Assembly (NCBI GenBank): GCA_964016885.1
Contig: OZ024740.1
Location: forward strand, 301,196,001-301,260,000
Origin: Eledone cirrhosa
Taxonomy: Eukaryota
Direction: 5' to 3'
DNA length: 64,000 nucleotides
Of the stretch, positions 4,232-54,699 are shown piece by piece (position 1 is the first letter of the stretch; every line of letters begins with the position of its first letter). The notes beneath the pieces are model-generated. The model ran no database searches. It was not told where the DNA came from and saw only the letters and a program-made list of their open reading frames with translations. A program made the position numbers and the translations under genes.

Positions 4232-4336
4232 TATATCTATCTATCATTCTGCCAGTCTGTCTGTCTGACTGCCTGTCTGTTTATGTATCTATATATCTAT
4301 CTATTGATCCACGTATCAATCTATCTACCAATCTAT
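4232..4336. repeat. Degenerate (TATC)n/(TGTC)n microsatellite abutting the T0 3' end
   Basis: tatatctatctatc...gtctgtctgtctg...atctatctattg...ctatctaccaatcta. Confidence 0.75.
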
Positions 4337-17940: not shown

Positions 17941-17984
17941 TAATAATAATAATAATAACAATAATAATAATAATAATAATAATA

Positions 17985-19925: not shown

Positions 19926-19969
19926 TAATAATAATAATAATAACAATAATAATAATAATAATAATAATA

Positions 19970-21899: not shown

Positions 21900-21900
<1 letters not shown>
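19970..21900 (+). mobile_element. A3: 5'-truncated Dong family A copy
   Basis: Same truncation point as A2, offset by 1985 bp; flanked by (TAA)n. Confidence 0.95.
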
Positions 21901-25384: not shown

Positions 25385-28300
25385 GTTGTTATTCCTTGAA
25401 TCTCAGTCATTGATGTTGGTTAACTGGAAAGTCCGTTGGATTGAATATCAAGCCACTACCTGCAGCCTCAGATATTCAGGACGTATCGGAGGGTTCTTGC
25501 TGTTCCAAGCAAGCATGCCTTTTGTAGCGTTCCAAAAAGCGTGAAGGGGCTGATTTTCTTTAACCATCCCTGGAAACTTTTGGAGATAGTCCCCAGTGCG
25601 CCTATGACAATCGGGATCACTTTGACTTCATGGCAGTTCCAAATCCTTTTCACCTCCCACTTTAGGTCCTGGTATCGGTTAATTTTCTCCCTCTCCTTCT
25701 CTTGCACTCTCGTGTCGAAAGGGCAGGCCACATCCACAATCAGGCACGATCTTTTTTCTTTGTCCACAACCACCAGGTCAGGTCTATTGTGTTCCAGTTG
25801 TTTGTCCGTCTGTATCCTAAAATCCCACAGCACCTTCACCTGATTGTTCTCCATCACCGCCTCTGGCCTATGCTCATACCATTTCTCAGAATGTGGTAAA
25901 TTGTTTACTTTGCACAGGTGCCAGTGGATCACCCTGCCCATCACATCGTGTCTCCAGCCCTTATAGTGGGTCTGGGCTAGGTGTTTACACTCGGACACAA
26001 TGTGAGCCACAGTCTCCTCTCTCTCTCTCCACAGATCCTGCACAGTGGGCTAGCCTCCTCCTTGTAGATATGGTGCTTCAACCACTTCGTTTTGAGGGCC
26101 TGCTCCTCCGCAGCCATTAGCATTCCTTCTGTAGCCTTTTTGAGGTCTCCTCTTTTTAACCAGTTCCATGTCTGTGGATCTCTAAATTCAGTTTTCTCAA
26201 AGAAGGTACTATGAAGGGATTTTCCCTTAAGGCTGCTCTTCCTCCTTGATGTTATTTCCTCCTTGGACATCCCCTGGCCTACTGTCCCCTCCTTCAGTAC
26301 AGTTCTGAGCATTGGCTCCTTACTATAGGTCACGTATTTGTATAGGTTGTTTTTCTCCATCTGAACACAGTCCTCTATGCTGATAAGACCTCTTCCACCC
26401 TCAGATCTCCTTAGGTAGAGTCTATCGACATCACTCCTCTTGTGGAACATGTTGTAGATAGTCAATAGCTTCCTAGTCTTCCTATCCATTTCTTTTTGTT
26501 CAGCAACATTCCATCTCAGAATTCCCGCACTGTACCTAATAATAGACACAGCTCGGGAATTTACTGCGCTTATGGCATTTCTGCTGTTCAGATGTGACTT
26601 CAATACGCTCCTTACTCTCCGAATGTATTCAGTTCTTAACAATTCCTTCATTTTTTTGTTCTTTATGCCATCGGCCTCCAGAACGCCCAAATACTTGTAT
26701 CCTTCCTCAGAGTCAATTTCCTTTATCATCTCACCTGTTGGTATCTGGATCCCGTCACCTCTGCTCAATCTACCCCTCTTCATCACAATGACTCCACATT
26801 TACCAATACCAAAACTGCATACATATATCACTGCTGAAAATACGGACAGTGTCAACAAGCACATCCAACTCCTTCTCACTTTTCCCGAAGAGCTTAAGAT
26901 CGTCCATGAAGAGGAGGTGATTGATGGCAAGCTCTCCCCTTCCCAACTTGTATCCTGCTCTCACTTTTCGCAGCATAATGGTCAAGGGCATCAGGGCAAG
27001 GACAAACAACAGAGGGGACAGGCTATCTCCCTGGAAGATACCTCTCTTGATCTTCACGTTTCCCAAGGATACTCCAGTTGATGTCAACTCTGTCTCCCAG
27101 GACCCCATACTCCTGCCTAGCAACTGTCTGATGTTATCCGCCACCCTGAAGATCTCCAGGCTTTTGGTGATCCAGGAATGAGGCACCATGTCAAATGCCT
27201 TTCTGTAGTCTATCCATCCCATGGCAAGATCAGTGTGTCTCCTCCTGCAATTCCCCATTACCATCTTATCAATAAGTAACTGGTCCTTTGTACCACGTGA
27301 CTTCTTTCGGCATCCTTTCTGTTCGTCCGGTAACACGTTGTTTGTGTGGTGGTGATGGTAGATTTCCTCAGACACAATGCATTACGGACAGACATGTGAT
27401 AGGTCTATAGTTGGTAACATCATTACCCTTGATTCGGTCTTTCATTATCAGAACTGTGGTACCTTTGTCAACCACTCTGGCACCTCACTGACACCAAGCA
27501 GTCATTGAACATGGCCGTCAGCTTCGGGTGGAGGGATGTTAAATGTTTAATCCAATACCCCTGCACACCATCTGGGCCTGGTGATTTCCAGTTGGTTAGT
27601 TTTTTGGCCTGCCCCTTAAGAGTTTCAACTGTGATACTCAAATCAGTTTGTTGTTGTGCCTGCTCACCGATCTCCCTCTGTACTGTCTCAATCCACCCTG
27701 CCTGGGCATTGTGTCTAACATCCTGCTCCCATATTCCTCTCCAGAATGTTTTAGTTTGCTCCGCTCCAGGGATCAAGTCGTTGCCTCTTTCTTTCCCCTC
27801 AAGCTGTCCAAACAGCATCTTCTGGTTGTTGTCGAACATGCGGTTCTGTTTATACTGACTGACTCTGTTCTCGTATCGCCTGATTTTTGCACTCTTTGCT
27901 ACAATGCGTTGCTTCAGTTCCTCTATGATAATATTTAGCTTTTTCCTCCTAGTTTTATATTTTATTTCCAGTCTATTTTTAGTGCCTATGTTTTTTAGTG
28001 TCCCATTCAGTAGTGATTCAAGCTTTCCTATGTTATTTCTCATTTCCCCGATTTGCCCACACAGTCGTTTCTTCCACCATGGCTCTGCTCTTTCTTGTCT
28101 GTTGTTTCCTCTCGCTTTTATACCAAGTAGTTTCCTCACCGTATTTGCTGTTGCTTTGAGGATATTGTTGCACTGGTGAAGGCTCCTCGCCTCAAGGTAT
28201 GGGATGACTTTGTTTACCTTAGCTGTTGTTTCTTTTAACTTTTTCCTGTCTACAAATCTTAGGTTCATAGTTCTCCCACTATCATTGTTCAATTCATCTA

Positions 28301-29894
28301 CCACTAAATTTAGGATGTCAACCGAATCTTATCCTAGCCCGTCAGCATTCATCTCCTCAGTGGCGTATCTCTGTTCCAGGTATTATTTATCTCAGTATTC
28401 AGATCATTGTCTGCTTCGGGTGGTTTCTCCGTTCTCAGGACCTCTTCACCTTCATTTCCCACTGGCTCGCTTGTCTGGCATACTACACCCGGCATCTCCA
28501 AGCCATTCTCTCTGCTCAGTTCCTCCAGTTCCAGCTCGCTTATCCATCCATTAGTTCTTATTACCCGGGCCTGCCCGGCCAATTTTTGTTCATCTAATTT
28601 AAATAAACCAATCTCGTTCCAGATGTTATGCATCCGTCTCCTGTAGCCCCTCTCCTTGGGGTTACTTTTCAGGTAACATTGCATAACAGTTCTATTGAAT
28701 TCTTTCGTCCAGTTGGTTCTGGCCCCTTTCCTTCTTCTCCTTCCTCCAACATCAGCAGTATTTGGTTGACAGTCAGGTTCCTGCTGCTGAGCCAGGGGGC
28801 ACCTGTTGGGTGAGAGTCTGTCACATGACGTTCTAGTCTCCATTTCACCGTTATTCGAACTGTTTATGTTCGATATTTAAACACTCTTATCGAGGATTGG
28901 CGAATGTATGGTTACATATCCATCTGTGGATCCGCCATTCCACTTGGCCCTTGTGTGGCATTATCACCACGCTGTATACGAACACACATAAACAAACAAA
29001 AACACAGGCAGAAAGGGCCCCAAAAATGAATAAGCATAAGTTTCATTGTAATGTAGTGTTCGAATGTCTGACTTAGTTTTTGTTTTTTAAGTTTTAGTTT
29101 TTCCCCCCTCTTCTCTGTCCGTCCGCCTGCTTCTCTCTTCATTCTTATTTTCTTTACGTTTTTTTTTGTTTTTTTTTTTGTTTTTGTTTTTGTTTTTCTC
29201 TGTTTGTTTTTCTCGTTTTTTGCTGTTGTTGCTGTGCTGCTTTGGTTTTGTTGTTTGTTTTTTCTTTTTTCTTTTGAGTCTATCTATATATTTTGATGCC
29301 TTCCTCTTTTTTAGCAGTAGGGATTCTATAATGTGGTGGTAGCAGCCAGCTGGAAGATGTGGGAGACTTGCGGCGGTAGCGATACTGAGACAGTGGTGGT
29401 GGTGATGTCGATACCGAGGCAGTGGTGGCGGTGATGTGACCGTATTACTGTAGTGATGGTGCTGTAGCGGTGGTAGCAGTGAAGGAGTGAAGGGGTGGTG
29501 GCGGCGGTGATGGGATAATGGTTGTAATGATGGCCGTAGTGAGCGGTGGTGGTTTAGTGTACACAGGTGATGGGGTGGGTGGTGTATCTAGTTTCTGGTG
29601 TTGGTGAGTTTGGCTGTTCTATATAGTGTAGGCAGAGGAGGAGGGGCGGGTTCTTCTTCCATTTATAGCCATTTTCTTTTTTGGATATACAGTGTACAAT
29701 ACAAAGTTGAATATTTGAATATTTGAGCCTTATAACAATATATTTTGGGTCCGAATTTTTTGGGGCTCAAGCCGGGTGCTTTACGTAGCATTTGTACTAA
29801 GAGTTGTTATTTCACAAATGATTTAAATATGTTAAAAATTCAAAACTTACGGGAGCGATTTCATGACCTCCGTCACCTCGTGCGTCTTCTTCCC
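25385..29894 (-). mobile_element. B2: apparently full-length Dong family B element with ~1.05-kb 5' leader; ORF 28843->25468 is frameshifted
   Basis: Reverse complement of B1 over 25385-28783. The ORF starts METRTSCDR at 28843 and the leader runs to the (TTA)n at 29895. Confidence 0.9.
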
Positions 29895-31460: not shown

Positions 31461-34400
31461 GGCGACCTACGTAGTAAATCGTATCATCGTGAGCTCCGCA
31501 AAGGTTTGTTATTTCCATTTGTTAAAAATTGTCATTTATGGAAAATTTTATTGTTAACTGTTTATAAGCGCACATACATTGTTTTCCGAAAAGGACACCC
31601 AAAAAGATTGGGGCCTTGTGCCCAAAATTTATACTTTTATTATTATCAAAAAAATTTCTTTGAAAAAAATGGCTAATTCACCTCTGCACCAAACAGCTGA
31701 AAGCCTTCCTCACAAATTAACACCTCACACCGACACCACCATTGTAAATGTTACTTCGTTTGCCAACACAAAAAAAAAAATATAAGCAGTAGCAATATTT
31801 TAAATTTGTCTCAGGCAGACATTCATTTCCCGCCATTGCCAAAGACTGCAGGTGTTAAAGCCTCCACCACCACCACCACCGCGACAACCACCACCCCACC
31901 ACCACCGCGACAACAGAAACAAAAGAAGAAAAAATAAATTAACTCGTGATGTCGAAATGAAATCAAACAAAATGGACTCTTCCCCACCAAAGACGACTGA
32001 CGTCACCACCACCACAACTGAAACTAAAATTAATATTAATACAAATAACGATAGCAACAACAGCAACAATGACATTATAAAACCGACCCTCAGTTTCGCC
32101 AGAGTAGCAAAACAATTCGAAGTATTTACGGTAACCCAAGAAGATTTAGAAAATGCCAAACAAATGGTAAAGAAAGATGGGTACAGGGTCAGCCTCACCC
32201 CTCACCTAATAAAATGGAGCATCGGCGCCTATGCACCGTGTCGTATAGAACAATAAATGTAAAATCGCGCCGAGTGGAACGGGCATCCGAGTCCCAAATC
32301 CAAAAAGCTTTGGGACATGTGTGGGCAAGAAAAACCCACATCAGACGTGGGAAAAAGTATGGAACCGTGGATGTGTTCTTTGAAACACCAGAGGAGGCTA
32401 GAGAACACTCCATGGCCCCATTAAAAAGTGACGACTTCACACTCGTCCCAAGCTATTGTGGCCAGAGACTCGTGAAAATTAGTGTGATCCACGTTCCACC
32501 GGCCATCGAAATTCCCTCGCTAATGGCTGCCGTCCTCGCTGGCATCGAGGCCAACACCAAGATAATCAAAATAGCGAAAGAAAAGCAGGAGAACTGGTCC
32601 GGATCTGGGATGGAGCTCCTGATCCAAGCGGACCAAAAAAGCATTGAGGAGATCGCAGAGGTAATAGATCTCACTGACGGCAGCCACCTCACCGTAATCG
32701 TCGAGGGCAGAAGGCCTAGGTGTGTCGTTTGTGGTGAAGGAATCCACCTAAGAGCTTTCTGCCCTGAAGCTAAAAGGTTGAGGCCACCTCTCTTACCCAC
32801 CCCAGTAACCCAGCCATCAACACCACTAGCAGCAGAAATGGCTGCAACAACTGTAGCAGCAACAACAGAAGCAACTGGAACAGCAACAACCCCAGCAACA
32901 GTAGCAAAACCAACACCACCACCACCCAACGCGCCAGAACTAGCCCAGCGCCTACACCATCCACCACCCGAAAACCAACACCAAAGCCTGTGGAGGATTT
33001 TCCACTCCCCGACCTATCGCAACTGGAGACAAGGTGTGACAACGAGAAGTGTGAAACGGTACAAGTAAAAAAGAAAAAGGGAAAGAGAAGCCAAAACAAT
33101 CTCCTTCCTTCCCCCTCCAAAAACAAAATAGAGAGGGAAACAAATAAACTATCAAACAAAAAAGTTAGGACAGCTGTGCCACCATCCACACCAGCATCAC
33201 CAACCCCATCACCACAAACACCAACACCATCACCATCATTAACCCCAACACCACAAAAGTCACCAAAAAGCGAAACAGAAACAAACCCACAACAAACGCT
33301 AACAAAACATAACAACCAAAATGATACTCACTACACAACATTAAATTTGAACAACAACCAATTATTACACTACATCCAACACAACACCAGCATAACAGAA
33401 AAAGACTACACAACACCCCAAATGTCCACACCACCTCCACACATACAAATCACTCGCATCAGACAGAAAACGTACATGACACTAAAACAAAAATTCCGCA
33501 AAGACATCGGATACTTCCAACAAACACTCTACAGGAGGATTTATAAGAACATCTTTCCGGAGGAGGTCACAAGCAGTGAAAAGGATGGAGAAACCATCCT
33601 TCCTCTACGAGAAGTAACGTAAGTGGTCTTTCCCATCTTTTCCACTCCATTTCAACACGGCCTCACTCAGAATAGGAAGCATAAATGCGCGTGGCTTGGG
33701 GTCGCCATGGGAGAATGGCCACCTGCTCAACGACCTCAGGTCACTAAACATAGATGTAGTGGCCATCAGCGAGACCAGAATCTCCGAAGCACGGACCTTC
33801 GCACCGATCTTCGGCGGCTGCGATGTGTACGCATCTCCCAGCCGTCCGGGATCGGGGGGAGGAGTTGCTGTGCTTTTACGGAGAGGTTTGGATCTCGCCA
33901 TACGGCCCATCTTCCTGGACCCAGAAGGTAAGTTGGTGGGGCTGGACGTGAACAGCGGAGACGGGCAAGATTTGAGGCTGGTGGCCGTCTATGCCCCGAC
34001 AGGAGCAGGGCGGCCTGATTTCTTCCGGCGTCTGGAGACGTTTCTTAGAACGTCCCCCTCTTTAATGTTAGTGGACGACTGGAACAGGATCTTAGATGCA
34101 CACTGGGACTGTGTGGGGTTAGCGGATAAGGGAGGAAGGTGCAATACCCTCACCAACCTGCTCAGGCGTTTTGAACTGTCTGACAGTTACCGATTGGATT
34201 TCCCGAATGTGCCAATGTCGACTTATACAAACCGCATAGGGACATCCAGATCATATCTAGATAGAGTATGTTGTAGGGAAATAGATAGGTCTAGCCTAGG
34301 CTGTCCACAATTCAAGATAGTCAGCTACACAGACCACACATTCGTGATCTGTGTGCTTGATTTAGATAGGCTTCAAAGACGAGGGCCCGGCTACTGGAGG

Positions 34401-37005: not shown

Positions 37006-39951
37006 AATGCTTTTTTATAATCTATCCAAGCAATCGATAGATTTTTGTGTCTATTATGACAATCTTCCAGTATCATTTTGTTAACCAGAAGCTGATCCTT
37101 ACAGCCATATGAGCCTCGTTTACACCCTTTCTGCTCAATGGGAAATAGGTCATTTGTTATCAGGTGGTCATATGTGTATTCAGTTAGGACTGATGTTAAC
37201 ATTTTATAAGCAAGTTATCGGTCTGTAATTTTTGGGATTGTTTGTCTCATCATTCTTCGGAAGCAGGAATGTAATGCCGTTAACTAGCCATGATGGTATC
37301 TTTTCTGGCTCCTTAACAATTTCATTGTAAAGTTGTCTAACAGCTCATGAGACTCTGTGAAGCCATTTATCCAAAAGTTTTTTATTTTGTCTTTTCCTGG
37401 GGATTTCCATTTGCTGGTTTTTCTTAGAGCCAAGCTCAACTGTTCAACTGTTATATTTTCCCATATTTGTTCCTCAAGGTGAGCTGTATCTTTCATTTGT
37501 CTGTCTATCCATGGGGCATGTATGTTATGAACTTTTTCTTCGGCCCAGATCTTTTCCCAGAATGCTTGCATTTCCTCCTTGGTTGGTATTGATTTAGCAG
37601 TTATTGTTGACTTACCAATTTTTCTGTAGAAGTTTCTTTGGTTGTTTTTGAACATATTATTGTCCTTATAGAATCTAGATCGTTTTTCAAAGCGCCTTAT
37701 ACGAGCAGCTTTGGCCGACACTTTTTGCTTGATTATTTCTATCAACATGTCTATGTCACATGTTGATTTTATACTGTACTTTTTTTTAAAATTTTCTAAG
37801 TTTAGTTTGTTTAAGATGTTCATCTACTTTATAGTTTGTTAAAATTTCTATGTCAGATCGGAGAAGGTTTATTTGGCGATTGATGTTCTCTTGCCAAGTA
37901 GATTTCTTGTGGGAATTCCTTTGTTTTTTCATCTTCACTCCACATAAGTGAGTGGTGACTTTAGCCGATGCATAATAGAGATGATTTAAATCAGTAATGT
38001 TTATTTTGTTTGTGATGATAATGTTTTTAAGAATTATGTTAGTCTTGTGTATTATCTTTTGGTTCTGTCTGGAGTTCTGGATCTTAGGGATGGTGTCTCG
38101 TTGCCCCATGTCAGATTCTTTCATTTTCATCCATTCGATCATAATTTCATCCTTCAAGTTGGCAAGTTCATTCTCATTCATTTCTTTATCATTTACGATC
38201 TCATTATTTTCATTTGGAGTTTCATCTTGAGCATGCACTCCCTCCACTTTTTCGATCCTTTCTTTAATTTGTTCTGTTGCCAGTGACTCCGCCCCAACCC
38301 AGGGATTCGAAGTGTTACAATTTACCTCGTTTTCACTGACACATCTTTTATTTTCCCTTCTCTGACTTTGTGCTGATAGCTTGATCTGATCAATTTCTAT
38401 ATCAGTTAGTAACTTTTTTCTTACAATATTTCTTCGTATATTGGCTAGTTTGTTGCTGTCAATATAGCCTCTGTTTTCGGGATGTTTCTTTTTCCAGTTG
38501 ATATATGTCTGTTCTGTATTCGATGTATTTGATGAGTAGTACATGGCAGTGTAGAAAGCCTCAAGGACTTCTTTATTATCTTCTCTTGAACATTTTACTC
38601 TCTTTTTCTTTGGATTTCTTGGTGGTGAGCATGGAGGGCCAACAGTATGAGTATTCCGGTTATGGGAGGTCTCCAGCTCCGAAGTGATGGGAAGGTTTGA
38701 ACCATTAACTGATTTTTAGACCCCAGTCTGGTTCCTCTCTGAGGGACGCGGCCCTCTTTTACCCGTGATACGGCCGATCCGGTATGAGATTTTATCATTA
38801 GACATTTACTTTATTTTGTCTCGTTTTATCCTTATCCGCCAAGGGGTAACCATTTCGTCTTACCGCTTCTAGAACGAGTGTCAACCAAGACTAGAGGGGT
38901 CGTTCTCCCCTAGAGACACGGCTATTTCCCGCCGGCCGCCATCCCGGTATTTCTTGGTCACGGGGTTTTCTTTTTGTTGTTTTTTTTAAATTGTTATTAT
39001 CATGAGTGGTTCCTTAATGTGAGCATTGCGTGGTTTAAGAATGAAATTATTAATAATTGTCTCCACTCCAGGCACAAGGTCAGCAATCACCCAGTACATT
39101 ACAATAATATAATATACTTTTCTGCTGAAGTTGCCTGTTATTGTTGTTGGCTATGTCGGTGGTGGTGCTGGGGATTTTTATATTGTTGGCGAGGAAGGGG
39201 TGAGCCAGCAGTGCCATAGTTGTTGATGTTGACGTTTGGCCGGTGGCCAGGTCACTAAGTCAATCTATTCATATCTTTTGCTAGCCCCTCCCTTGTCTAG
39301 TGATACCGCCACCTTCCCCTTTCTCTCTCAAGTTAACAGGGGAATAGTGATGGTAGTAATGAAGGAGTGGTGGCGGTGGTGATGGGATAGTGGTAGCAAT
39401 GATGGATGGAGTGGTGTCGGCGGTGGCGTTGTCGTTACTGGGTTTTTTCGATATGTAATATCTATGAGTGTGTGTCGGGTATGTTTAATATATATTGTGT
39501 TGACATATTCCCGTAAAATTGGAATTAAACATTTTGTTAAAAATTGAGACAATAATAATAGTAATTATTATTATGATGCTGGGATTGGTGGTGTTGGTGG
39601 TGAAATTGCCGTTATCTGGCTGTTATATTTAGTGTGATGGGGTAGGTGGTGTATCAAGTTTCTGGTGTTGGTGAAATTGCTGTTATTTGGCTGTTCTATA
39701 TAGTGTAGACAGAGGGTGTTTTCTTCCATTTATAACCATTTTCTTTTTTGAATACAAAATATATAATACAAAATTGAATATTTGAGCGATGTAACAATAT
39801 AATATGGATCCGAAATTTTATGGGACTTGATTCGGTGGTTTATCCAACATTTGTATTAAGAATTGTTATTTCACAATTAATTTAAATATGTTAAAAATCA
39901 AAAACTCACGGGGCGATTTCATGACCACCCCGTGCGTCTTCTTCCCTTCCC
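37006..39951 (-). mobile_element. A4: 5' half of a Dong family A element including its ~1.15-kb leader
   Basis: Colinear with A6 from the leader to AWIDYKKA; ends at the (TTA)n tract 39952-39983. Confidence 0.93.
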
Positions 39952-40196
39952 TTATTTTTATTATTATTATTATTATTATTATTGAATGCCATGGTTGACG
40001 GAGGCTCGGCTCTGTAAGGTATAGTAATTTTTAACCGTTAAAACAATTGTAAATTGTTTAAAACTTGAACCAAATTGTTGATAAAGACACCCTCCTCCTC
40101 GTGAGAGGGGTCTTTCTGTCCGTTATTTGGCCCTTCGGGGTTAAATAACCAGTTATTGGGGTTTTGTACCCAAAATTTCATTTTAAACAAAAAAAC

Positions 40197-42268
40197 ATGG
40201 CTACCAAAAAGAAATTTCATACGTCACTCCCACTCATTCCGTCTTCTTCTTCCTCAATCATCACTACAGCAGAGAGAAGATTGTCTCTCTCCCTCCCTTC
40301 TTTAAATGTGTCTCTCTCCCTCCCTTCTCTTTCGCAAGCGACGAAAGAAAAGAAAAGTCTCGTGCAAAGCGTGCAAGGTTTCTCCACGACGACGACGACA
40401 GCGACGAAACAGGTGTGCGGGAAATACGAAAACCCAGTTCATTCGTCTGACGTCAGGAATAATAGCAGTAGCAGCCGTAATAACAACAGCAACAGTGACA
40501 ATGAAAACAACAGTAGCAGCCGCAACAGCATCACCAGCAGCATAAACAACAACAGCATTAGCAGCAGCAACACCAACAACAACCACAGCAACAGCGGCGG
40601 AGGCAGTAGTCGTAGTACCTGCAGCAACAAAAGTACCAGCAGCTCTGACGACAACAACAACAGCAGAGAAAAACCAATCTCATTTGCAGGTATTGCGAAA
40701 AACTTGGAAACAATCCTCATAACAAATGAGGAATTAGAGGAAGCGAAGAAGATGGTGACAAAGAAAGGACACCGAGCAATCTGCAAGGCAGCGAAAAATT
40801 TTTTCGAAACCCAAGAGCACTGTACGGTCACGTACCGTACAGTAAGTACAAAATCCCGTAGGGTGGAAAGAGCCACAGAGGCCCAAATACAAAAAGCCTT
40901 GGGGTCTGTGTGGCAGAGGAAAACGCACATCACCCGAGGCAAAAAATACGCCACCGTAGACGTACTTTTTGCCACACCCCAGGAGGCAAAGGCCCAATCA
41001 GTAGTGACCCTAAGGAGCGAGGAAATGGTGTTGGTGCCCTCCTACTGCGGGCAAAAAATTGTGAGGGTCAAACTGACCCACGTCCCCCCCGGAATGACCC
41101 CTTCTTGGCTGGCCGCGTCTGTCCTCGTCGGAATCGAGGACAAAACAACTGTACTGCAAGTACAGAAAAAAGTAAGAGAAGATTGGGTCGGCTCCTCCAT
41201 TGAGATGCTAATCCAAACCAACCAGGAGTGCATCGAAGCTATCCCGGATGTGATAGACTTCGATAACGGCACTCAACTGCCCATAAGTGTTGAGGGCAAA
41301 CGCCCGAAATGCTTTCGCTGTGGATCGAAGACTCACCTCAGGGCCTTCTGCAACGAGAAGACCCTGAGAAAGGAGAAAACCCCCCTCCTTCCGAATCCGG
41401 CTCCACGGCTACCAGGAACGATAGGTCCGTGGCACCCATACCCACTCCACGGAAATCAAAGACAGCAGCAGCAGTGGAAATATTAACAACAACAACAGCA
41501 ATACCAAATGCAGCTGCAACAGAGACTCCAGTGCAAACATCACCAACAACAACAAGTGAAAGAGTGGAGCTGGTACCCCTCCCCGACCTTACAGAATCAG
41601 ACATGGAGTGTGAGGTGGGAGAGGGATGGCAAAAGGTCGCAAGAAGGCACAAACGCAGAAGCAGCGCATCGTCGCCTTTGAAAAGGGAGGAAAGAAATGA
41701 GAAAAGGGTAAAGTCTACTGCAAAGAGACCCACAGCAGCAACACCACCAACACCATCACCACCCACACCAGCACCACCATCACCACCGGCGACAACCCCA
41801 CCGCCAACAACACCTTCAACACCACCACCACAAGCACCAACATCGCAAACACAACAACAAAACACACACACCCAGCAACAACGACAAGAAAATAGCAGAA
41901 CCACACCCCACCCCCAGAAAAACAAATGCACGGCAATAAACACACACAACAAGAAACTAATGACTTACATAATTGAACACACAGACATTTCACAACAGGA
42001 CTACATAATACCAGCACCAATCAAAACGCCAACTAACATAAGACTGCTAAAAATAGCACAGAAACAATACACAAACATTAAAACGAAATTCCCCAACGCA
42101 GTTGGTGATTTCAGGGACCTAGGAGGAACCATCAATCGAAGAGTATATTCAGACATTCTCTTAGAAGAGCCGACGACCAGCCGAAGGGACGATTCAACGG
42201 TCCCTTCACCAGACGATCAAGTGAAAAGGGATGTAAAAACCATCCCTCCTCTACCAAAAGTACGGTAA
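40197..42268 (+). pseudogene. T2 ORF1 (gag-like nucleic-acid-binding protein), one frameshift near 41400-41460
   Basis: MATKKK start, S/N-rich low-complexity region, RRM-like core (KYATVDVLF), CCHC knuckle CFRCGSKTHLRAFC, P/T-rich region, stop at 42266-42268. Confidence 0.85.
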
Positions 42269-42302
42269 GTGGTCTTTCCCATCTTTTCCACTCTATTTAA
42301 AC

Positions 42303-45300
42303 ATGACCTCACTCAGAATAGGCAGCATAAATGCGCGTGGCTTGGGGTCGTCATGGAAGCAGGGTCACCTGCTCAACGACCTCAGGTCACTAAACATAGA
42401 TGTAGTGGCCATCAGCGAGACCAGAATCTCCGAAGCACGGGCCTTCGCACCGATCTTCGGTGGCTACGATGTGTACGCATCTCCCAGCCGTCCTGGATCG
42501 GGTGGAGGAGTTGCTGTGCTTTTTCGGAGAGGTTTGGATCTCGCCATACGGGCCATCTTCCTGGACCCAGAGGGTAAGCTGGTGGTGCTGGACGTGACCA
42601 GCGGAGACGGGCAAGCTTTCAGGCTAGTGGCCGTCTATGCCCCGACAGGAGCAGGGCGGCCTGATTTCTTCCGGCGTCTGGAGACCTTTCTTGGAACGTC
42701 CCGCTCTTTAGTGTTAGTGGGCGACTGGAACGGGATCTTAGATGCACGCTGGGACTGTGTGGGATTAGCGGATAGGGGTGGAGGGTGCAAGAGCCTCACC
42801 AACCTGCTCAGGCGTTTTGAACTGTCTGACAGGTACCGATTGGATTTCCCGAATGTGCCAATGTGGACTTGGACAAACCGCATAGAGTCATCCAGATCAT
42901 ATCTAGATAGAGTATTTTGTAAGGAAATAGATAGGTCTAGCATAGGCTGTCCACAATTCAAGATAGTCAGCTACACGGACCACAAATTCGTGACCTGTGT
43001 GCTTGACTTAGATAGGCTTCATAGACGAGGACCCGGCTACTGGAAGCTAAACGCGTCCTTACCAGCGCGCAAGGCCTACAGAGACCGGATTAGCGAACTA
43101 GTTAAGCGGGCGTTGACGGGGGCCATCGTCAACAACAAGTGGTGGTTTGCTCTGAAAAGAGCGATTAGAATAGAATCGATTAGGTTTAGTAAGGCTTTAG
43201 CAATAGAGAAAAATAGAGCAGAGGGAGAACTAGTTAGAAAATTAGACGAGGCGCTTAGCAAAGGCATTGCGACCGACGTGCTTGCGGCGAAATTGGCCCT
43301 TGACCAATTCTTCAATGCAAAGCACGAAGGCTGCGTTGTCAGAGCTAGGGTGCGTGCTCTCAGACACGAGGGGACGAAAGCCGTTCAATGGGCCCGAGTG
43401 GCGGAGGCGCGTCGTGGCAACAAAGCCACGATCCGGTCTTTGGTGGACCACGACGGGCGCATGCTACTCGATCCCGGGCAAATGTGTGAAGCTTTTCAGC
43501 GACACTTCGCTCAGCTGTTCGGGGGCAGCGGGGGGCCGGGTAGAGGGATGGACTTTAGTGTCTACCTCGACGGACTGCCGCGGCTCTCGGCCACTGAGGC
43601 GAGGTGTGGCGAAAAGCCGATAACAGCCGCTGAAGTACGGGAGGCAATGACTGGCTGCACAAGGGGTAAATCGCCTGGTTTGGATGGTCTGCCCTATGAA
43701 CTTTACGTACAGATGCCAGACTTGTTCGGAGGCCTTTTGGCGGACGTCTACTGCAACTGGCAACAGAACGGGAGAATTCCCAGTTCTGTGAGCCGAGGAG
43801 CGGTGGCACTGCTGAGAAAGGATCCGAACAAGGGGGATAACATAGACAATTTCCGGCCCATAACTCTGCTAAACACAGAGTTTAAGATTTTGGCCAAGGT
43901 GCTAGCAAAGAGGTTGGCGCTTGCCGTTGGTGGTCTGGTGGGAGAGGCGCAGACATGCGCCATTCCCGACAGATCCATCCACGACAACCTCCACCTCATG
44001 CGATACATCGTAGAGAGGGTAGCTAGGGAACCTGGCACGGGTGGGCCCTTGATCAATTTAGATCAGTCGAAAGCTTTCGATAGGGTCGACCATCGTTACC
44101 TAGCGGCAGTCCTGAGGGCGGCTGGCTTTGGGCCCGTCTTCAGAGGCTGGATCGCTGCCATGCACAGCGACATCTGCTCTGTGGTGAGAGTGAACGGTCA
44201 CCTGTCGGAACCGTTCAACATCATGCGCTCGGTCCGCCAAGGATGTCCCCTCTCGTCCCTCTTGTACGTATTGACTCTCGAGCCATTACTGCACAAACTG
44301 GAGACGTTGAGGGGAGTCCCGCGCGAACTAGGATGCGGAAGATCCGTGTCAGCATATGCGGACGATGTCACCGTAGTGGTGTCGAACGCCAAACACATCG
44401 AGGCGATCGGCACTACACTAAGAGAATACGAAGCGGTGACAGGAGCAATGATCAACTAGGAAAAGTCAGTGGGCCTGCAGCTCGGCACCTGGAGAGGCAG
44501 GTCCATGCCGTCCAACAGCGTCGTCGGGCGCTGGACGGACGGACCGGTTAAATTGCTAGAGGTCTGGTTCGGTCCGGACCTCCAGACGGACAAAAACTGG
44601 GACGAGGTGACGAGCAGGGTGGCTTCTCTCACCCAGAAATGGGCGGAGAGGAAGCTATCCCTGAAAGGTCGAGCGGAGGTGGCTAACGCGTACATCGCGT
44701 CTGTCATCTGCTACCGCCTAACCGTCGTACCTTGTCCTAAGCCTCGCCTGACTGCGCTGGAGCGTTTGCTCTTTCGCTTTTTGTGGAAGGGACGTGCTCC
44801 GATGGTCAGGCGGTCCATCTGTTGTCAACACCCGCTACGTGGAGGGCTGGGCATGCCGTGGCTGATGATGCGCAGGCACGCGCTCAGGCTACGACATCTC
44901 CACCTCTTCCTCGACGGTGATCAGGTGTGGTCGCCGTTTGCTAGACGCGTTTTTCCCCAGCTCGTTTCCTTGACGGAGCTGCAGTCCTGGGTCAAGCGAA
45001 GACCGAGAGGGAGCGCCTGGAGACTGGAATGTCTTCAGGCGCTCACAGCCCTCGACCAATCGGGCAATGTGATCGGTGGAAACTCCACCTCGGCGTTCTA
45101 TAGAGGATTAGTTGAGGGGAAGAGCGACGACGTACTTGGGGAAACTCTAGGCGTCGACGAAAATCAACTAGCCAATCTCTTCGGAAGAACTTTCGGGCCA
45201 GGGCCTATGGACAACTTCCAGAAATCTCTGGCCTGGCAGTGCTACCGAGGAGCCTTGCCAGTTCGGGATAAACTCTACAGGCATGGAGGTGCCGTCAGCC

Positions 45301-45722
45301 GGGCATGTCCGAGATGCGCGCAGGGCGACGAAACCGTCCTGCACGCACTCGTCCAGTGTCCGAAAATTGCCGACTTGTGGGTTTATGTCGAACACCTGCT
45401 GTCGCGTTTAGGACGGATCCAGCTATCATCTGAGTCTATCGTGAGGATTGCCCCGCCCTCCTCCTTTAGCCGGGAAGGGCAGGCAGTTTTTATCTGTCTG
45501 GTGGCCATGGCGAAAGAGATAGTATGGTGGACACGTTTGAAAGGGCTGAAGACGAGCACTTACCTCTTCGGTGATGCTCTGATTGACTTTTTCAAATTTC
45601 ATTTGAAAAGGAAAATCAGAGTAGAGAAGGAAGTGCTCTCTTCCCAGCATTTTGTTGAAAGATGGGTGAGAGAAGCAAGAATGGCCCGAGTGAATGGGCC
45701 GACTCTGAGTATATATCTGTAA
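42303..45722 (+). pseudogene. T2 ORF2 (APE-RT) with a single premature stop
   Basis: Near-identical to T3 ORF2 except CAG>TAG at 44457-44459. Confidence 0.93.
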
Positions 45723-46053: not shown

Positions 46054-46055
<2 letters not shown>

Positions 46056-47584
46056 GTTGCATTAACTTGCTTTATGTTCATACGAGTTATCACCAAGTCA
46101 CAACCAGTGACCTCAAGAGACAACAAGGTCCGCCATGTTGAAGAAAGAACATACATACTCACACATGCATCTTTAGTGTTTAGACTTGTAATGTACTTAT
46201 ATTGACAGAATCTTCCTTAGTATATGGGCAGATCCCATTAGTACTATCTTTTGTATTTCTCCTATACGCGGGTTTCCTGGGATTTGCGATAAGTAATCAT
46301 TAGACCCCTTAGGTATCATTCCCAGAGCGCCTACAACCACTGGTATTGTTTTAGTTCTCAATTTCCACATTTTCCCAATGTCTATCTCCAGGTTCTTATA
46401 CTTGCTCAATTTTTCAAATGTTTTTATAGATACATTCTTGTCTATTGGAACAGACATATCAATTAGCAGGCATACCCTCTTTTGAAAGTTCTTCAATATT
46501 ATATCAGGTCTATTTGCATCTATTTTTCGGTCTGTTTGGATTCTAAAGTTCCACAAGATTGAGATGTGATCTTTTTCAAGTATGGGAGGTGGTTGATGCT
46601 CCCACCAATTCTTTTGATGGGGCTGGTCAAAATGCTTACACATTATCCAATGTATGTATTGTGCAGCTCTGTCATGCCTGTTTAGGTATTCGGTTGGAGC
46701 TATAGAACTGCACATTGAAATTCAATGTGCAGTCCTATAGCTCCAACCGAATGGTCAATGGTCTCTGGTTTTTTGCATACACGGCATAATGGGCTGCACC
46801 CATTTTTTATTATGTTGGCTTGGTAATTTTTTGTTGGCAGACACTGATCTTGTGCTGATATAACCAGTCCTTCAGTCTCCGATTTCAGTCCAGAGGATGC
46901 CAACCACTGATGGGTTAAAGTTTTGTCAACATCAGGATTGTTAGCTCGCTCTGGGTATTTTCCATACAGAGTCATTTCTTGCCATTTCTTAGCCAGTTTC
47001 TCTAGCAGTTCTTTCTTGGCAGTTACTTTTACCTGCTTTGCTTTTTCTGTGTTTTCCATTTCAGCAGTAAATGGGACTTCTGAAATTTGTAGTCCATTAC
47101 TGTATCTTTGTGCATCTTTTGTAATGGAATATGATCTTTTGATGCTTTCGTGTTTCAAAACGAGTTTCATCATCCAATCATGTGATTCCCTTAGATATGT
47201 AGATAATCCAATTGTTGCAGTTTTCAACGCAATGTCTAACTGGATTAACCCACGTCCTCCTTCTTTCCTAGGGAGATATATTCTATCTATATCTGCCTTA
47301 GGGTGATGCATTCTGTGCATGGTTAAGAATTTTCGAAATTTTGTATCGAGCCTACGGATCTCTGTGCTTGACCAGTTGATGACATTGTAACTGTATGTTA
47401 CTACTGGTATGGCAAGCGTGTTTATGGCATCGATCCTATTCCTTGCATTCAATTCCGTTCTTAAGATTGCTCTTACTCTCCGGTAACATTCCTTCCTTAT
47501 CCTTTCCCTCATTGTCGAGTGCTTGATTCCGTCTCCTTCACAAACACCTAGATATTTGTAAGTTTTTTCTTGATCAAGTTCTCT
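46054..47584 (-). mobile_element. A5: 5'-truncated Dong family A copy
   Basis: RELDQEKTYKYLG to ...RKILSI plus the family A 3'UTR; (TTA)n on both sides. Confidence 0.95.
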
Positions 47585-47602
47585 TATTATTATTATTATT
47601 AT

Positions 47603-50600
47603 TTGCATTTATCTTGCTTTATGTTTATACGAGTTATCACCAAGTCACAACCAGTGACCTCAAGAGACAACAAGGTCCGCCATGTTCAAGAAAGAACACA
47701 CATATTCACACATGCATCCTTAGTGTTTAGACTTGTGATGTACTTATATTGACAGGATCTTCCTTAGTATACGGGCAGTTCCCATTAGTACTATCTTTTG
47801 TATTTCTCCTATACGCGGGTTTCCTGGGATTTGCGATAAGTAGTCGTTAGACCCCTTAGGTATCATTCCCAGAGCGCCTACAACCACTGGTATTGTTTTA
47901 GTTCTCAATTTCCACATTTTTCCAATTTCTATCTCCAGGTTCTTATACTTGCTCAATTTTTCAAATGTTTTTATAGATACATTCTTGTCTATTGGAATAG
48001 ACATATCAATTAGCAGGCATACCCTCCTTTGAAAGTCCTTCAATATTATATCAGGTCTATTTGCATCTATTTTTCGGTCTGTTTGGATGCTAAAGTTCCA
48101 CAAGTTTGAGATGTGATCTTTTTCAAGTATGGGAGGTGGTTGATGCTCCCACCAATTCTTTTGATGGGGCAGGTCAAAATGCTTACACATTATCCAATGT
48201 ATGTATTGTGCAGCTCTGTCATGCCTGTTTAGGTATTCGGTTGGAGCTATAGGACTGCACATTGAAATTATATGGTCAATGGTCTCTGGTTGTTTTTTGC
48301 ATACACGGCATAATGGGCTGCAACCATTTTTTATTATGTTGGCTTGGTAATTTTTTGTTGGCAAACACTGATCTTGTGCGGATATAATCAGTCCTTCAGT
48401 CTCCGATTTCAGTCCAGAGGATGCCAACCACTGATGGGTTAAAGTTTTGTCAACATCAGGATTGTTAGCTCGCTCTGGGTATTTTCCATACAGAGGCTTT
48501 TCTTGCCATTTCTTAGCCAGTTTCTGTAGCAGTTCATTCTTTGCAGTTACTTTTACCTGCTTTGCTTTTTCTGTGTTTTCCATTTCAGCAGTAAATGGGA
48601 CTTCTGAAATTTGTAGTCCATTACTGTATCTTTGTGCATCTTTTGTAATGGAATATGATCTTTTGGTGCTTTCGTGTTTCAAAACGAGTTTGATCATCCA
48701 ATCATGTGATTCCCTTAGATATGTGGATAATCCAATTGTTGCAGTTTTCAACGCAATGTCTAACTGGATTAACCCACGTCCTCCTTCTTTCCTAGGGAGA
48801 TATATTCTATCTATGTCTGCCTTAGGGTGATGCATTCTGTGCATGGTTAAGAATTTTCGGATTTTTGTATCGAGCCTACGGATCTCTGTGCTTGACCAGT
48901 TGATGACATTGTAACTATAGGTTACTACTGGTATGGCAAGCGTGTTTATGGCATCGATCCTATTCCTTGCATTCAATTCCGTTCTTAAGATTGCTCTGAC
49001 TCTGCGGTAACATTCCTTCCTTATCCTTTCCCTCATTGTCGAGTGCTTGATTCCGTCTCCTTCACAAACACCTAGATATTTGTAAGTTTGTTCTTGATCA
49101 AGCTCTCTTATCACGTTCCCCCGATCAAGATTAATGTCTGAACTCTTCAGCAGCTTTCCTCTGGTGAACGTTGCTTTGGCGCATTTATCCAGTCCAAACT
49201 CCATTTTAATGTCATCACTGAACTGCTTCACAGTGGATAATAGCCCTTGCAATTGTTCATCATTTTTTGCGAATAGTTTCAGGTCATCCATGTAGAACAG
49301 GCAATTAATGGTTTTGTCATAGACTCTATATCCATGTTTTGTTTCATTGAGCATTTTACTTAATGGTATAAGTGCGATGCAGAATAAAAGCGGTGATAAA
49401 GAGTCACCCTGAAAAATTCCACAATTAATGTTAACTTCTCCAGCTTCCAGTGATTTTGTTTCACTATTCAAAAGGAGTGTCGTTCTCCATGTCCTCATAC
49501 TGAATGACAGGAACCTCCTGACAACGGGGGATATTTTGAAAATCTCTAAACATTTTTCAATCCAACTGTGTGGCAAACTATCAAATGCTTTTTTATAATC
49601 TATCCAAGCAATCGATAGATTTTTGTGTCTATTATGACAATCTTCCAGTATCATTTTGTTAACCAGAAGCTGATCCTTACAGCCATATGAGCCTCGTTTA
49701 CACCCTTTCTGCTCAATGGGAAATAGGTCATTTGTTTTCAGGTGGTCATATGTGTATTCAGTTAGGACTGATGTTAAAATTTTATACATTGTGGTCAAGC
49801 AGGTTATCGGTCTGTAATTTTTGGGATTGTTTGTCTCATCATTCTTCGGTAGCAGGAATGTAATGCCGTTAACTAGCCATGATGGTATCTTTTCTGGCTC
49901 CTTAACTACTTCATTGTAAAGTTGGGCTAACAGCTCATGAGACTCTGTGAAGGCATTTATCCAAAAGTATTGTATTTTGTCTTTTCCTGGGGATTTCCAT
50001 TTGCTGGTTTTTCTTAGAGCCAAGCGCAGCTGTTCAACTGTTATATTTTCCCATGTTTGTTCTTCAAGGTGAGCTGTTTCTTTCATTTGTCTGTCTATCC
50101 ATGGGGCATGTATGTTATGAACTTTTTCTTCGGCCCAGATCTTTTCCCAGAATTCTTGCACTTCCTCCTTGGGTGGTATTGATTTAGCAGTTATTGTTGA
50201 CTTACCAATTTTTCTGTAGAAGTTTCTTTGGTTGTTTTTGAACATATTATTGTCCTTATAGAATCTAGATCGTTTTTCAAAGCGCCTTATACGAGCAGCT
50301 TTGGCCGACACTTTTTGCTTGATTGTTTCTATCAGCATGTCTATGTCACATGTTGATCTTATACTGTACTTTTTTTTCAATTTTCTAAGTTTAGTTTGTT
50401 TAACATGTTCACCTACTTTATAGTTTGTTAAAATTTCTATGTCAGATCGGAGAAGGTTTATTTGGCGATTGATGTTATCTTGCCAAGTAGATTTCTTGTG
50501 GGAATTCCTTTGTTTTTTCATCTTCACTCCACATAAGTGAGTGGTGACTTTAGCCGATGCATAATAGAGATGATTTAAGTCAGTAATGTTTATTTTGTTT

Positions 50601-52467
50601 GTGATGATAATGTTTTTGAGAATTATGTTAGTCTTGTGTATTATCTTTTGGTTCTGTTTGGAGTTCTGGATCTTAGGGAGGGTGTCTCGTTCCCCCATGT
50701 CAGATTCTTTCATTTTCATCCATTCGATCATAATTTCATCCTTCAAGTTGGCAAGTTATTCATTTCTTTATCATTTACGATCTCATTATTTTCATTTGGA
50801 GTTTCATCCTGAGCATGCACTCCCTCCACTTTTTCGCTCCTTTCTTTAATTTGTTCTGTTGCCAGTGATTCCGCCCCAACTCTGGGATTCGAAGTGTTAC
50901 AGTTTACCTCGTTTTCACTGACACATGCTTCATTTTCCCTTCGCTGACTTTGTGCTACTAGCTTGATCTGATCAATTTCTATATCAGTTAGTAATTTTTT
51001 TCTTACAATATTTCTTCGTTCATTGGCTAGTTTGTTACTGTCAATATAGCCTCTGTTTTCGGGATGTTTCTTTTTCCAGTTGATATATGTTTGCTCTGTA
51101 TTCGATGTATTTGACGGGTAGTACATGGCAGTGTAGAAAGCCTCAAGGACTTCTTTATTATCTTCCCTTGACCATTTTTCTCTCTTTTTCTTTGGATTTC
51201 TTGGTGGTGAGCATGGAGGGCCAACAGTAGGAGTATTCCGGTTATGGGAGGTCTCCAGCTCCGAAGTGATGGGAAGGTTTGAACCATTAGCTGATTTTTC
51301 GACCCCAGTCTGGTTCCTCTCTGAGGGACGCGGCCCTTTTTTACCCGGGTGACGGCCGATCCGGTATGAGATTTCATCATTAGACATCCACTTTATTTTG
51401 TCGCGTTTTATCCTTATCCGCCAAGGGGTAATCTTTTCGTGTTACCACTTCTAGAACGAGTGTCAACCAAGACTAGAGGGGTCGTTCTACCCTAGAGACA
51501 TGGCTATTCCCCGCCGGCCGCCATCCCGGTATTTCTTGGTCACGGGGTTTTCTTTTTGTTGTTTTTTTTTAAATTGTTATTATCATGAGTGGTTCCTTAA
51601 TGTGAGCATTGCGTGGCTTAAGAATGAAATTATTAATAATTGTCTCCACTCCAGGGACAAGGCCAGCAATCACCCAGTGCATTACAATAATATAATATAC
51701 TTTTTGTTGTAGTTGGCTGTTATTGCTGCTGGCTATGTCGGTGGTGGTGCCGGGGCTTTTTATATTGTTGGTGAGGAAGGGGTGAGCCAGCAGTCCCATA
51801 ATTGTTGATGTAGACGTTTGTCCGTGGCAAGGTCACCAAGTCAATCTATTTATATCTTTTGCTAGCCTCTCTCTTGTCTAGTGCTACCACCACCTTCCCT
51901 TTTCTCTCTCAAGTTAACAGGGGAATAGTGTCAGTAGCATTGAATGAGTGGTGGCGGCGATGATGGATGTGGTGGGGTGGTGGCAGCGGTGGTGTTGTGG
52001 TTACTGATATAGTATCTATGAGTTTGTGTTCGTATGTTTAATATATATTTTCATTATATTTTGTGTTGACATATTCCCGTAAAATTTGAATTAAACATTT
52101 TTTAAAATTTGAGACAATAATAATAGTAATTATTATTATGATGCCGGTGAAGTTGCCGTTGTATTTAGTGTGATGGGATAGGTAGTGTATCAAGTTTCTG
52201 GTGTTGGTGAAATTGAAATTGCCGCTGTTCTATATAGTGTAGACAGAGGGTGTTTTGTTCCATTTATAACCATTTTCTTTTTTTGAATACAAAATATATA
52301 ATACAAAATTGAATATTTGAGCGATATAACAATATAATATGGATCCGAAACTTTATGGGACCTCATTCGGTGCCTTTATGCAACATTTGTGCTAAGAATT
52401 GTTCTTTCACAATTGATTTAAATATGTTAAAAATCAAAAAACTTACGGGAGCAATTTCGTGACGTTC
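47603..52467 (-). mobile_element. A6: essentially full-length Dong family A element
   Basis: ~1.08-kb leader, long ORF and 3'UTR; (TTA)n on both sides. Confidence 0.96.
47744..51387 (-). pseudogene. A6 ORF: myb-like N-terminus, RT (YMDD), CCHC, PD-(D/E)xK restriction-like endonuclease; ~1216 aa once one 7-bp deletion is repaired
   Basis: A 214-aa ORF (51387-50743, KKREKWSREDNKEVLEAFY) and a 1000-aa ORF (50746-47744). Comparison with A4 shows cattctc missing near 50757. Confidence 0.92.
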
Positions 52468-52701
52468 TATTATTATTATTATTATTATTATTGGCGACCT
52501 ACGTAGGAAATCGTATTATCGTGAGCTCCGCAAAGGTTTGTTATTTCCGTTTGTTTAAAAATTGCCATTTATGGAAAATTTTATTGTAAACTGTTTATAA
52601 GCACACATACATTGTTTTCCGAAAAGGACACCCAAAAAGATTGGGGCCTTGTGCCCAAAATTTTAACTTTTATTATTATCCAAAAATTTCTTTGAAAAAA
52701 A

Positions 52702-54699
52702 ATGGCTAATTCCCCTCTGCACGAAGCAGCTGAAAGCCTTCCTCACAAAATAACACCTCACACCGACACCACCATTGTAAATGTTACTACGTTTGCCAAC
52801 ACAAAAAAAAAAATATAAGCAGTAGCAATATTTTAAATTTGTCTCAGGCAGACATTCATTTCCCGCCATTACCAATGACTGCAGGTGTTAAACCCTCCAC
52901 CACCACCACCGCCGCGACAACCACCACCAGCACCACCACCACCACCGCGACAACAGAAACAAAAGAAGAAAAAAATAAATTAACTCGTGACGTCGAAATG
53001 AAATCAAGCAAAATGGACTCTTCCCCACCAAAGACGACTGACGTCACAACCACCACAACTGAAAATAAAATTAATATTAACGATAGCAACAACAACAACA
53101 ATGACATTATAAAACCGACCCTCAGTTTCGCCATCGTAGCAAAACAATTCGAAGCGTTCACGGTAACCCAAGAAGATTTAGAAAATGCCAAACAAATGGT
53201 AAAGAAAGATGGGTACAGGGTCAGCCACCCCCCCCCCCCACACCTAATAAAATGGAGCATCGGCGCCTGTGCACCGTGTCGTATAGAACAATAAATGTAA
53301 CTTCGCGCCGAGTGGAACGGGCATCCGAGTCCCAAATCCAAAAAGCTTTGGGACATGTGTGGGCAAGAAAAACCCATATCCGACGTGGGCAAAAGTATGG
53401 AACCGTGGATGTGCTCTTTGAAACACCAGAGGAGGCTAGAGAACACTCCATGGCCCCATTAAAAAGTGACGACCTCACACTCGTCCCAAGCTATTGTGTC
53501 AGAGACTCGTAAAGATCAGGGTGACCCACGTTCCACCGGCCATCGAAATTCCCTGGCTAATAGCGGCTGTCCTCACCGGCATCGAAGCCAACACGAAAAT
53601 AATAGCAGTAGCAAAAGAAAAGCAGGAAAACTGGTCCGGATCTGGGATGGAGCTCCTGATCCAAGCGGACCAAAAAAGCATTGAGGAGATCCCAGAGGTA
53701 ATATACCTCACTGACGGCAGCCACCTCACGGTAATTGTCGAGGGCAGAAGACCTAGGTGTGTCGTTTGTGGTGAAGGGACCCACCTAAGGGCTTTCTGCC
53801 CTCAGGCTAAAAGGTTGAGGCCACCTCTCCTACCCACCCCAGTGACAAAACCATCAACACCACCAGTAGCAGAGATGGCAGCAACAACTGTAGCAGCAAC
53901 AACAGAAGCAACTATAACAGCAACAACCCCAGCAACAGTAGCAAAACCAACACCACTACCACCACCAGCAAAACCAACACCACCACCACCCAACGCTTCA
54001 GAACTAGCACCAGCGCCTACACCATCCACCACACCACAACCAAAACTAACGGCTGTGGAGGATTTTCCACTCCCCGGCCTATCACAACTGGAGACAGATT
54101 GTGATGACGAGGAGTGGGAAACGATATCCGGAAAAAAAAAAAGAAACCAAAAAAGAAAAAATTCTCTTCCTTCCCCCTCCAAAAACAAAATACAGAGGGA
54201 AACAAATAAACTAAGAAACAAAAAAGTTAGGACAGATATGCCACCATCCACACCAGCATCACCAACCCCATCAACCCAAACACCAACACCATCACCATCA
54301 TCATCCCCAGCACCACCATCACCTACACCACAAAAGTCACCAAAAAGCGAAACAGAAACAAACCCACAACAAACGCAAACAAAACAAAACAACCAAAACG
54401 ATACACACTACACAGCATTAAATTTGAACAACAAGCAATTATTACACTACATCCAACACAACACCAGCATCACAGAAAAAGACTACACAACAACCCCAAA
54501 ATTCACACCACCTCCACACATACAAATCACTCGCATCACACAGAAAACGTACATGACACTAAAACAAAAATTCCCCAAAGACATCGGAGACTTCCGACAA
54601 GCACTCTCCAGGAGGATTTATAAGGACATCCTTCCTGAGTAGGCCACAAGCAGTGAAAAGGATGGAAAAGCCGTCCTTCCCCTACGAGAAGTAAGGTAA
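52702..54699 (+). pseudogene. T3 ORF1, broken by frameshifts and a late TAG (54640-54642)
   Basis: MANSPL..., KYGTVDVLFETPEEA and CVVCGEGTHLRAFC lie in different frames. Confidence 0.85.

Follow-up and report, generated by a model that had tools for sequence, protein, structure and literature searches.

Element copies and their leaders

The window analysed here is a stretch of 64,000 nt of the Eledone cirrhosa genome (3.0 Gb in size; contig OZ024740.1, positions 301,196,001 to 301,260,000), and it is a cluster of young retrotransposons that lack long terminal repeats (non-LTR elements), stacked in TAA/ATT microsatellite. We considered in particular the leader at the 5′ end (the head) of copies from two clades, R4/Dong and L1/Tx1, for which the initial annotation had proposed one common leader/promoter module. 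Elements with a restriction-like endonuclease (RLE), such as Dong, branch deeper than elements with an apurinic endonuclease (APE), such as Tx1 (PMC4640811).

The Dong copies A6, A4 and B2 code for a reverse transcriptase (RT), a CCHC finger and an RLE, and a PDB search matched R2 proteins only. In Pfam the Dong-A and Dong-B proteins gave RVT_1 without Exo_endo_phos, hence no APE, and the RLE motifs PD-(D/E)xK are visible. In their N-terminal part a stretch containing Trp is visible at which the Pfam search gave no match (a Myb/SANT-like domain is typical of the clade, PMC7998251). The relatives of these proteins in the RT tree are unnamed, and R4/Dong, as against Hero or NeSL, is a putative label. 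The open reading frame (ORF) of A6 lies on the minus strand at 47744..51441, with one in-frame stop (50743-50745), and that of B2, frameshifted, at 25468..28876 of the same strand, with 39-41% protein identity to Dong-A. T1, T2 and T3 code for ORF1 and for an ORF2 with APE, RT and zf-RVT, the ORF2 being nearest to L1 ORF2p (E 2e-51, versus 3e-21 for R2). We take T1-T8 to be Tx1 rather than L1 clade, on the basis of the initial annotation and the target specificity. In T2 the frameshifted ORF1 and the ORF2, which has one stop, occupy 40197..45722 on the plus strand.

Precisely, the T2 leader lies on the plus strand at 39984..40199 and ends in the ORF1 start codon (40197-40199); copies of this family are 95-99% identical over 1.5 kb. 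Head-to-head with it, beyond 32 bp of (TTA)n target repeat (39952..39983), stands the leader of A4 (Dong-A; minus strand, 39737..39951), ending in a vestigial start codon (39739-39737) that opens 18 codons. Also on the minus strand are the leaders of B2 (Dong-B; 29670..29894), with a vestigial start codon at 29672-29670, and of A6 (Dong-A; 52271..52467), whose 5′ end is about 23 nt short. Those of T1 (31461..31671) and of T3 (52493..52704), which is of T1's family and head-to-head with A6, are on the plus strand. The blocks, the coordinates, the 32-bp repeat and the start codons of the initial annotation are all confirmed, the A-rich start codon being at +209 (T1), +214 (T2), +210 (T3), +213 (A4) and +223 (B2). 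In T2 this codon begins ORF1, and in B2 a frame of 17 codons; over 64 Dong copies the frame varies in length between 17 and 59 codons.

The T2 leader aligned with those of B2, A4 and A6 beyond dinucleotide-shuffled controls, with scores of 41, 45 and 53 (z 4.1, 4.5 and 6.2) that 0, 1 and 0 of 1000 shuffled sequences attained, respectively. In the same test T1 and T3 were weak against the Dong heads (z 0.2-3.0). When the whole window was scanned in tiles with the T2 head, the highest scores outside T2 itself were those of A6 and A4. One tile outside the elements (at about 61050, with a score of 43) equals T1 and exceeds B2 (41), hence the T2-B2 match alone is modest and single pairs are only suggestive. 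The homology of the block is real, but the match of T2 is mainly in the first 100 nt: over the whole leader, identity to the Dong leaders is 44-48% for T2, 51-58% for T7 and 55-60% for an old Tx1 head (L252).

Genome-wide, the module is not a free-standing repeat and sits at the 5′ ends of Dong and Tx1 copies. A pattern common to T2 and Dong occurred 3092 times, versus 0 for the reversed control. By our count, 37 of the 100 pattern matches listed were T2-type and 63 Dong-type, and all 30 of those fetched (9 T2, 21 Dong) were at an element 5′ end directly after microsatellite. The B2 leader gave 1618 candidates, of which 40 were scored and found to be 97-100% identical, and 30 of 30 B-leader loci ran on into the B body. 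We confirm that Dong and Tx1 copies have a common leader; these sequence comparisons support its being part of the transposed unit and homologous across the two clades.

The leader in further families and its putative function

Further families were fetched by RT motifs and from neighbouring loci. The Tx1 heads T4, T4b, T6, T7 and T8 and ten old copies are collinear with those of T1, T2 and Dong, beginning at about +30 and ending at the start codon of the Tx1 ORF1, and this extent of collinearity, about 190 nt, makes homology hard to avoid. Dong-C against T4b gave z 11.7-12.8, on par with T1 against T4. No significant alignment to Dong heads was obtained for the heads of T0, T0b and T5.

A profile built from an alignment of 19 Tx1 heads, with no Dong head in it, found 60 of the 68 Dong heads at E<0.01 (1.38 Mb; median E 1.4e-9), and 56 of them when T7, T2, T8 and L245 were taken out. 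For the copies in the window, the Tx1-only profile gave E 5.4e-10 with B2, 0.027 with A6, and 0.19 and 3.8 with A4, which is a diverged copy. Conversely, at E<0.01 a Dong-only profile found 31 of the 32 T7 heads, the best of them with 4.4e-9, but 0 of 16 T2 heads, and a T7-only profile found all five Dong-C heads (best 2.3e-7). With the Tx1-only profiles, the best E in a reversed decoy database was 0.52-2.0, and no match was obtained in 40 CR1/RTE-type loci, among which there was no clear full-length CR1/RTE head. Among 33 loci of the Dong families F and G, which are older, no clear 5′ ends were recovered. An apparent antisense copy of the module within the A leader region was rejected, the profile giving it no support.

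Another family, Dong-E, has a different leader, and its 30 loci gave no match with the Tx1-only profile. This leader is 1.5 kb long (seen at L142, 460-1950 on the minus strand of the locus, L150 and L168) and is composed of an outer head and of two inner modules in tandem, each of which has a donor-like motif; the last of them ends in an A-rich start codon, and a low-complexity tract follows. The inner modules are possibly stacked older promoters. A 300-nt element in a TAA array (L033, 4514-4820), with a Tx1-like hairpin and with E 6e-5 to 7e-4 in the Tx1 profiles, is possibly a short non-autonomous derivative.

As regards the function of the leader, a hairpin is predicted ahead of the Tx1 ORF1 start (40122..40149, plus strand, in T2, with -16.3 kcal/mol), and it is weak or lost in Dong: the predicted values are -9.9 to -24.5 kcal/mol in nine Tx1 heads and -2.5 to -7.8 in eight Dong heads. 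For the comparison at +28 to +32 we used a wider consensus of the downstream promoter element (DPE). By eye, a DPE-like four-letter core (PMC4748587) is at +28 to +31 in T1 and T7, with a looser match in B2. The position at +1, the retention in both clades and this core suggest a putative internal Pol II promoter. Early T runs in the leader speak against Pol III. In the contigs of four runs over 38600-41400 no joint was at the leader among 15 of 29 joints listed. As a separate observation, one contig of a diverged copy in run X4 (depth 67) skips 249 nt, GT..AG, within the Tx1 ORF1 (40955-41205); this skip is not listed for the other three runs.

Probable direction of a proposed transfer and alternative explanations

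The heads and the bodies of these elements show opposite patterns. The Dong heads are 66-93% identical and form a single clade (UFBoot 100). Among the Tx1 heads identity is 40-85%, and in Dong-Tx1 pairs it is 42-60%, T7 and L252 being the nearest. As for the bodies, Dong-A and Dong-B share the 39-41% of protein identity given above, and the ORF2s of the (ATT)n-type Tx1 families have 57-73% identity with T3. In an RT tree that took in 29 of 120 foreign proteins, 28 of the 29 fell together with A, E and F and separately from B, C, D and G, with supports of 0.90 and 1.0. Heads so alike on bodies so deeply split imply that the head common to Dong is far more recent than the separation of A and B. 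Mosaic copies were also found, with a B head on an A body (L047, L053) or, where the body is 91.5% like B, with an A-like head (L050, L052), and T4 and T7 combine bodies of 90% identity with different heads.

The ORF1 start and the hairpin serve Tx1 and are decayed in Dong, which points to Tx1 as the donor, and a movement of the leader from Tx1 to Dong is most likely. The donor was not T2, since the leaders of T7 and of older Tx1 copies are closer to the Dong leaders. The interpretation of the initial annotation, i.e. that Dong families captured a Tx1-type internal promoter, is in this way partly supported: homology, a leader belonging to the transposed unit and the probable direction are on its side, and the promoter itself is putative.

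We therefore favour, as rather more probable than all the other readings that we considered, that Dong took a front end of about 220 nt, likely a promoter, from Tx1, and that the leader then passed among Dong lineages. In a first step, the Dong reverse transcriptase, or recombination at the insertion site, would have fused a Dong body with the initial 220 or more nt of a T7/T4-like Tx1, with the break in the low-complexity start of the Tx1 ORF1. Adjacent Dong and Tx1 pieces are oppositely oriented in 37 of 40 cases (the three exceptions being two loci), so that simple read-through is not an obvious route; between neighbours in an array it would yield antisense fusions, which makes a template switch, a heteroduplex or an insertion into the Tx1 ORF1 start more likely. 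In our judgement, a template switch or heteroduplex would account for somewhat less than half of the probability, an insertion into Tx1 followed by 5′ transduction for about a third and DNA recombination for a fifth. In a second step, the leader would have supplied its own transcription start to an element living in untranscribed microsatellites and would have been kept for this reason, while the ORF1 start and the preceding hairpin decayed in Dong. In a third step, the A and B/C lineages would have exchanged heads by the same route. Past the start codon, a tblastn search of the Dong untranslated regions (UTRs) gave no match with ORF1 remnants.

Several results weigh against a capture from Tx1. 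T7 and the old Tx1 heads were chosen via their likeness to Dong, and a profile from four Tx1 heads not picked in this way found 3 of the 68 Dong heads; at E<0.01 the T7-only profile found just 1 of 51 A/B heads. Moreover, the 68 Dong heads are copies of few families, with some loci repeated, and are not independent, so that the profile counts show consistency rather than independent trials. The head tree (which excludes T0, T0b, T5, T5b, Dong-E, L073 and 27 of 30 T7 loci as unalignable or redundant) is unrooted; its Dong stem is long, at 0.33 substitutions per site, and the place of the Dong clade among Tx1 has a support of at most 58, hence the nesting of Dong in the Tx1 heads is not proven. 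No sampled Tx1 head is more than 60% identical to any Dong head, and no sense-oriented Dong insertion within a Tx1 ORF1 was found among the sampled loci. Nucleotide homology past the start codon reached z 5.3, yet a control stretch reached 4.6. Finally, T2, T4 and T5 are, by eye, without the DPE-like core at +28 to +31.

A different history, in which both clades received the leader from a third source (the first exon of a host gene or another element), or in which the ancestor of these Tx1 families obtained it from Dong, seems to us unlikely. The missing root, the long Dong stem and the poor placement just described would suit it, as would the similar layout of the Dong-E inner modules and, for a host origin, the fact that L1 can acquire first exons of host genes (10.1101/2025.02.02.635956). 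Nevertheless, the leader's 3′ half fits Tx1, where the ORF1 start works and the hairpin is predicted to be strong, and is decayed in Dong; diversity is greater among the Tx1 heads, some of which belong to old copies; and Dong-E, which is nearer to A than B is, lacks a match with the Tx1-only profile. This history is further opposed by the 100 pattern matches listed, all of which are T2- or Dong-type.

It is a little less probable still that the leader was shared by descent and kept for a role in the RNA, as a retained intron-like segment of 70 nt or a U1 site by which the transcript would be protected or regulated, and not as a promoter. From the letters alone, a candidate intron-like GT..AG segment of 73 nt is found in the T2 leader (40014..40086, plus strand), with a homologous one, also of 73 nt, in the B2 leader (29778..29850, minus strand). 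Such a segment of about 70 nt is nearly constant in length in both clades, with GT in 16 of 26 heads (7 of 7 in Dong) and AG, by eye, in 23 of 26; T5 is without the donor motif. In addition, an acceptor-like pyrimidine tract with AG (28972..29010, minus strand), about 100 nt ahead of the Dong-B ORF, is kept in B and C copies, and one locus (L079) joins the head to an A body exactly at the donor position. The far end of this junction is however 10 nt past the AG, and a similar deletion (L223) has its breakpoint 12 nt past the donor, so that both may be plain deletions. Exactly spliced genomic copies were not found with patterns for the two B-type products (0 of 6 matches, five being unrelated and one ambiguous, against the 1618 B-leader candidates) or for the long A-type product (0 matches), the A6-, C- and Tx1-type short products lying outside these patterns. 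In human L1, which also has a splice-donor-like site in the 5′ UTR, about 2% of the full-length copies are spliced (the SpIREs of PMC5860796). An origin of the leader from a spliced-leader RNA, a small nuclear RNA or a ribozyme was rejected, because a search of Rfam with 28500-53200 gave five weak matches, all far below the gathering score. A role in the RNA would in any case be compatible with one as promoter.

Convergence, in which unrelated AT-rich leaders evolved the same core-promoter words of the host independently, is very improbable and already largely refuted, because, even if a DPE is common to unrelated insect LINE (long interspersed element) clades (PMC4748587), the sequences are AT-rich and T0, T0b and Dong-E carry the same short motifs without significant alignment, the match extends collinearly over about 190 positions, reaches E 1e-9, keeps the spacing, includes a Tx1-specific hairpin arm and a start context that Dong does not use, and is absent from the reversed decoys and from the CR1/RTE loci, though no full-length CR1 head was clearly recovered.

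The initial annotation had also proposed that insertion into the same microsatellite helped the capture from Tx1. An A-rich flank was found at 64 of 64 Dong heads (TAA runs, sometimes GAA, are seen directly) and a T-rich one at 33 of 35 T1/T2/T4 heads; for T7 the automatic count gave 18 T-rich and 7 A-rich flanks out of 32, the printed flanks being mostly ATT runs. The opposite strand preference leads to head-to-head pairs such as A4/T2 and A6/T3. The imperfect inverted repeat that A4 and T2 form around the 32 bp of (TTA)n is therefore present but incidental, given how common this layout is (37/40), and a function for it was rejected. The Tx1 families T0 and T0b (1-4235 of the window; L031, 7533-9600; L132) sit in another microsatellite target, (CTAT)n. 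That their heads do not match Dong is suggestive of help from a shared target; T5, however, shares the target and has no matching head either, hence target sharing is not sufficient. Tentatively, and with less confidence than in the single capture, we may imagine that RLE elements dwelling in microsatellites persist by serial promoter capture from APE elements with the same target, the repeat serving as a place where 5′ modules change hands across the deepest LINE split and the inner modules of Dong-E representing older captures.

Known systems and neighbouring elements

No report of a leader common to an RLE and an APE clade was found in the open-access literature, to which the search was confined. 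What is already known is promoter replacement within L1, uptake of host exons by L1 and a DPE of four letters that occurs across insect clades. The 5′ UTRs of LINEs turn over fast and their sources are often unknown; in mouse L1, too, promoter-bearing 5′ UTRs moved between bodies, with 11 replacements, for which DNA recombination, a heteroduplex at the insertion site and an RT strand switch have been proposed (PMC3600994). In that case the donors were other L1 families or unknown, whereas here the donor would be an APE element and the recipient an RLE element that carries the donor's ORF1 start as a relic. L1 chimeras with host first exons and promoters (10.1101/2025.02.02.635956) are alike in that regulatory sequence of foreign origin is added to a LINE body at its 5′ end, but they are single copies with host donors, and here we have young families of hundreds to thousands of copies with a leader that is probably of another LINE clade. 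The DPE of jockey, Doc, G, I, F, SART1, TRAS1 and L1Tc Pr77 is also a word of internal Pol II promoters that crosses clades (PMC4748587), although of four letters, compared with about 190 nt of collinear homology. The sharing of the leader across the RLE/APE divide is real, with a likely direction of transfer and a putative function.

The Dong/R4 elements described in PMC7998251 have the same RT and restriction-like endonuclease and (TAA)n as usual target, and the available text of that source does not describe a Tx1-derived leader. Active families of both Dong-R4 and L1-Tx1 are present in Octopus vulgaris (PMC13282606). Kibi, Koshi and the crocodilian Tx1 elements are APE elements with microsatellite targets, as here, but their targets are (TC)n, (TTC)n, (TTCC)n and (TTTC)n (PMC4494074), while here it is (ATT)n, which is the Dong target read on the other strand. 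R2 is excised by a ribozyme from a co-transcript with the rRNA (PMC3774820), a route that an element in (TAA)n cannot use, so that the leader suggests how Dong may be transcribed. Here the probable source of a LINE leader can be named, across the RLE/APE divide, and young and abundant families with natural head/body mosaics make both the source and the transcription testable; clade labels based on RT only miss such an exchange.

As regards the rest of the window, T1 and A4 are joined tail to body at 37006-37009 with no repeat between them, both 3′ ends being gone, probably deleted. Tandem trains of 5′-truncated Dong-A copies, with TAA runs between them, occupy 15852-21900 and 46055-47603. The Dong-A UTR (39045-39102 and 51628-51685) contains an antisense piece of an abundant repeat similar to a short interspersed element, which occurs also at 4597 and 62162; some A subfamilies (L051, L066) are without most of this piece. 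Elsewhere, a CR1-type family (L211, L212) adjoins a long tandem repeat of short period, and just upstream of the window (L031, 1036-4629) there are two ORFs of RT/GIY-YIG type in inverted orientation, which we take to be Penelope-like.

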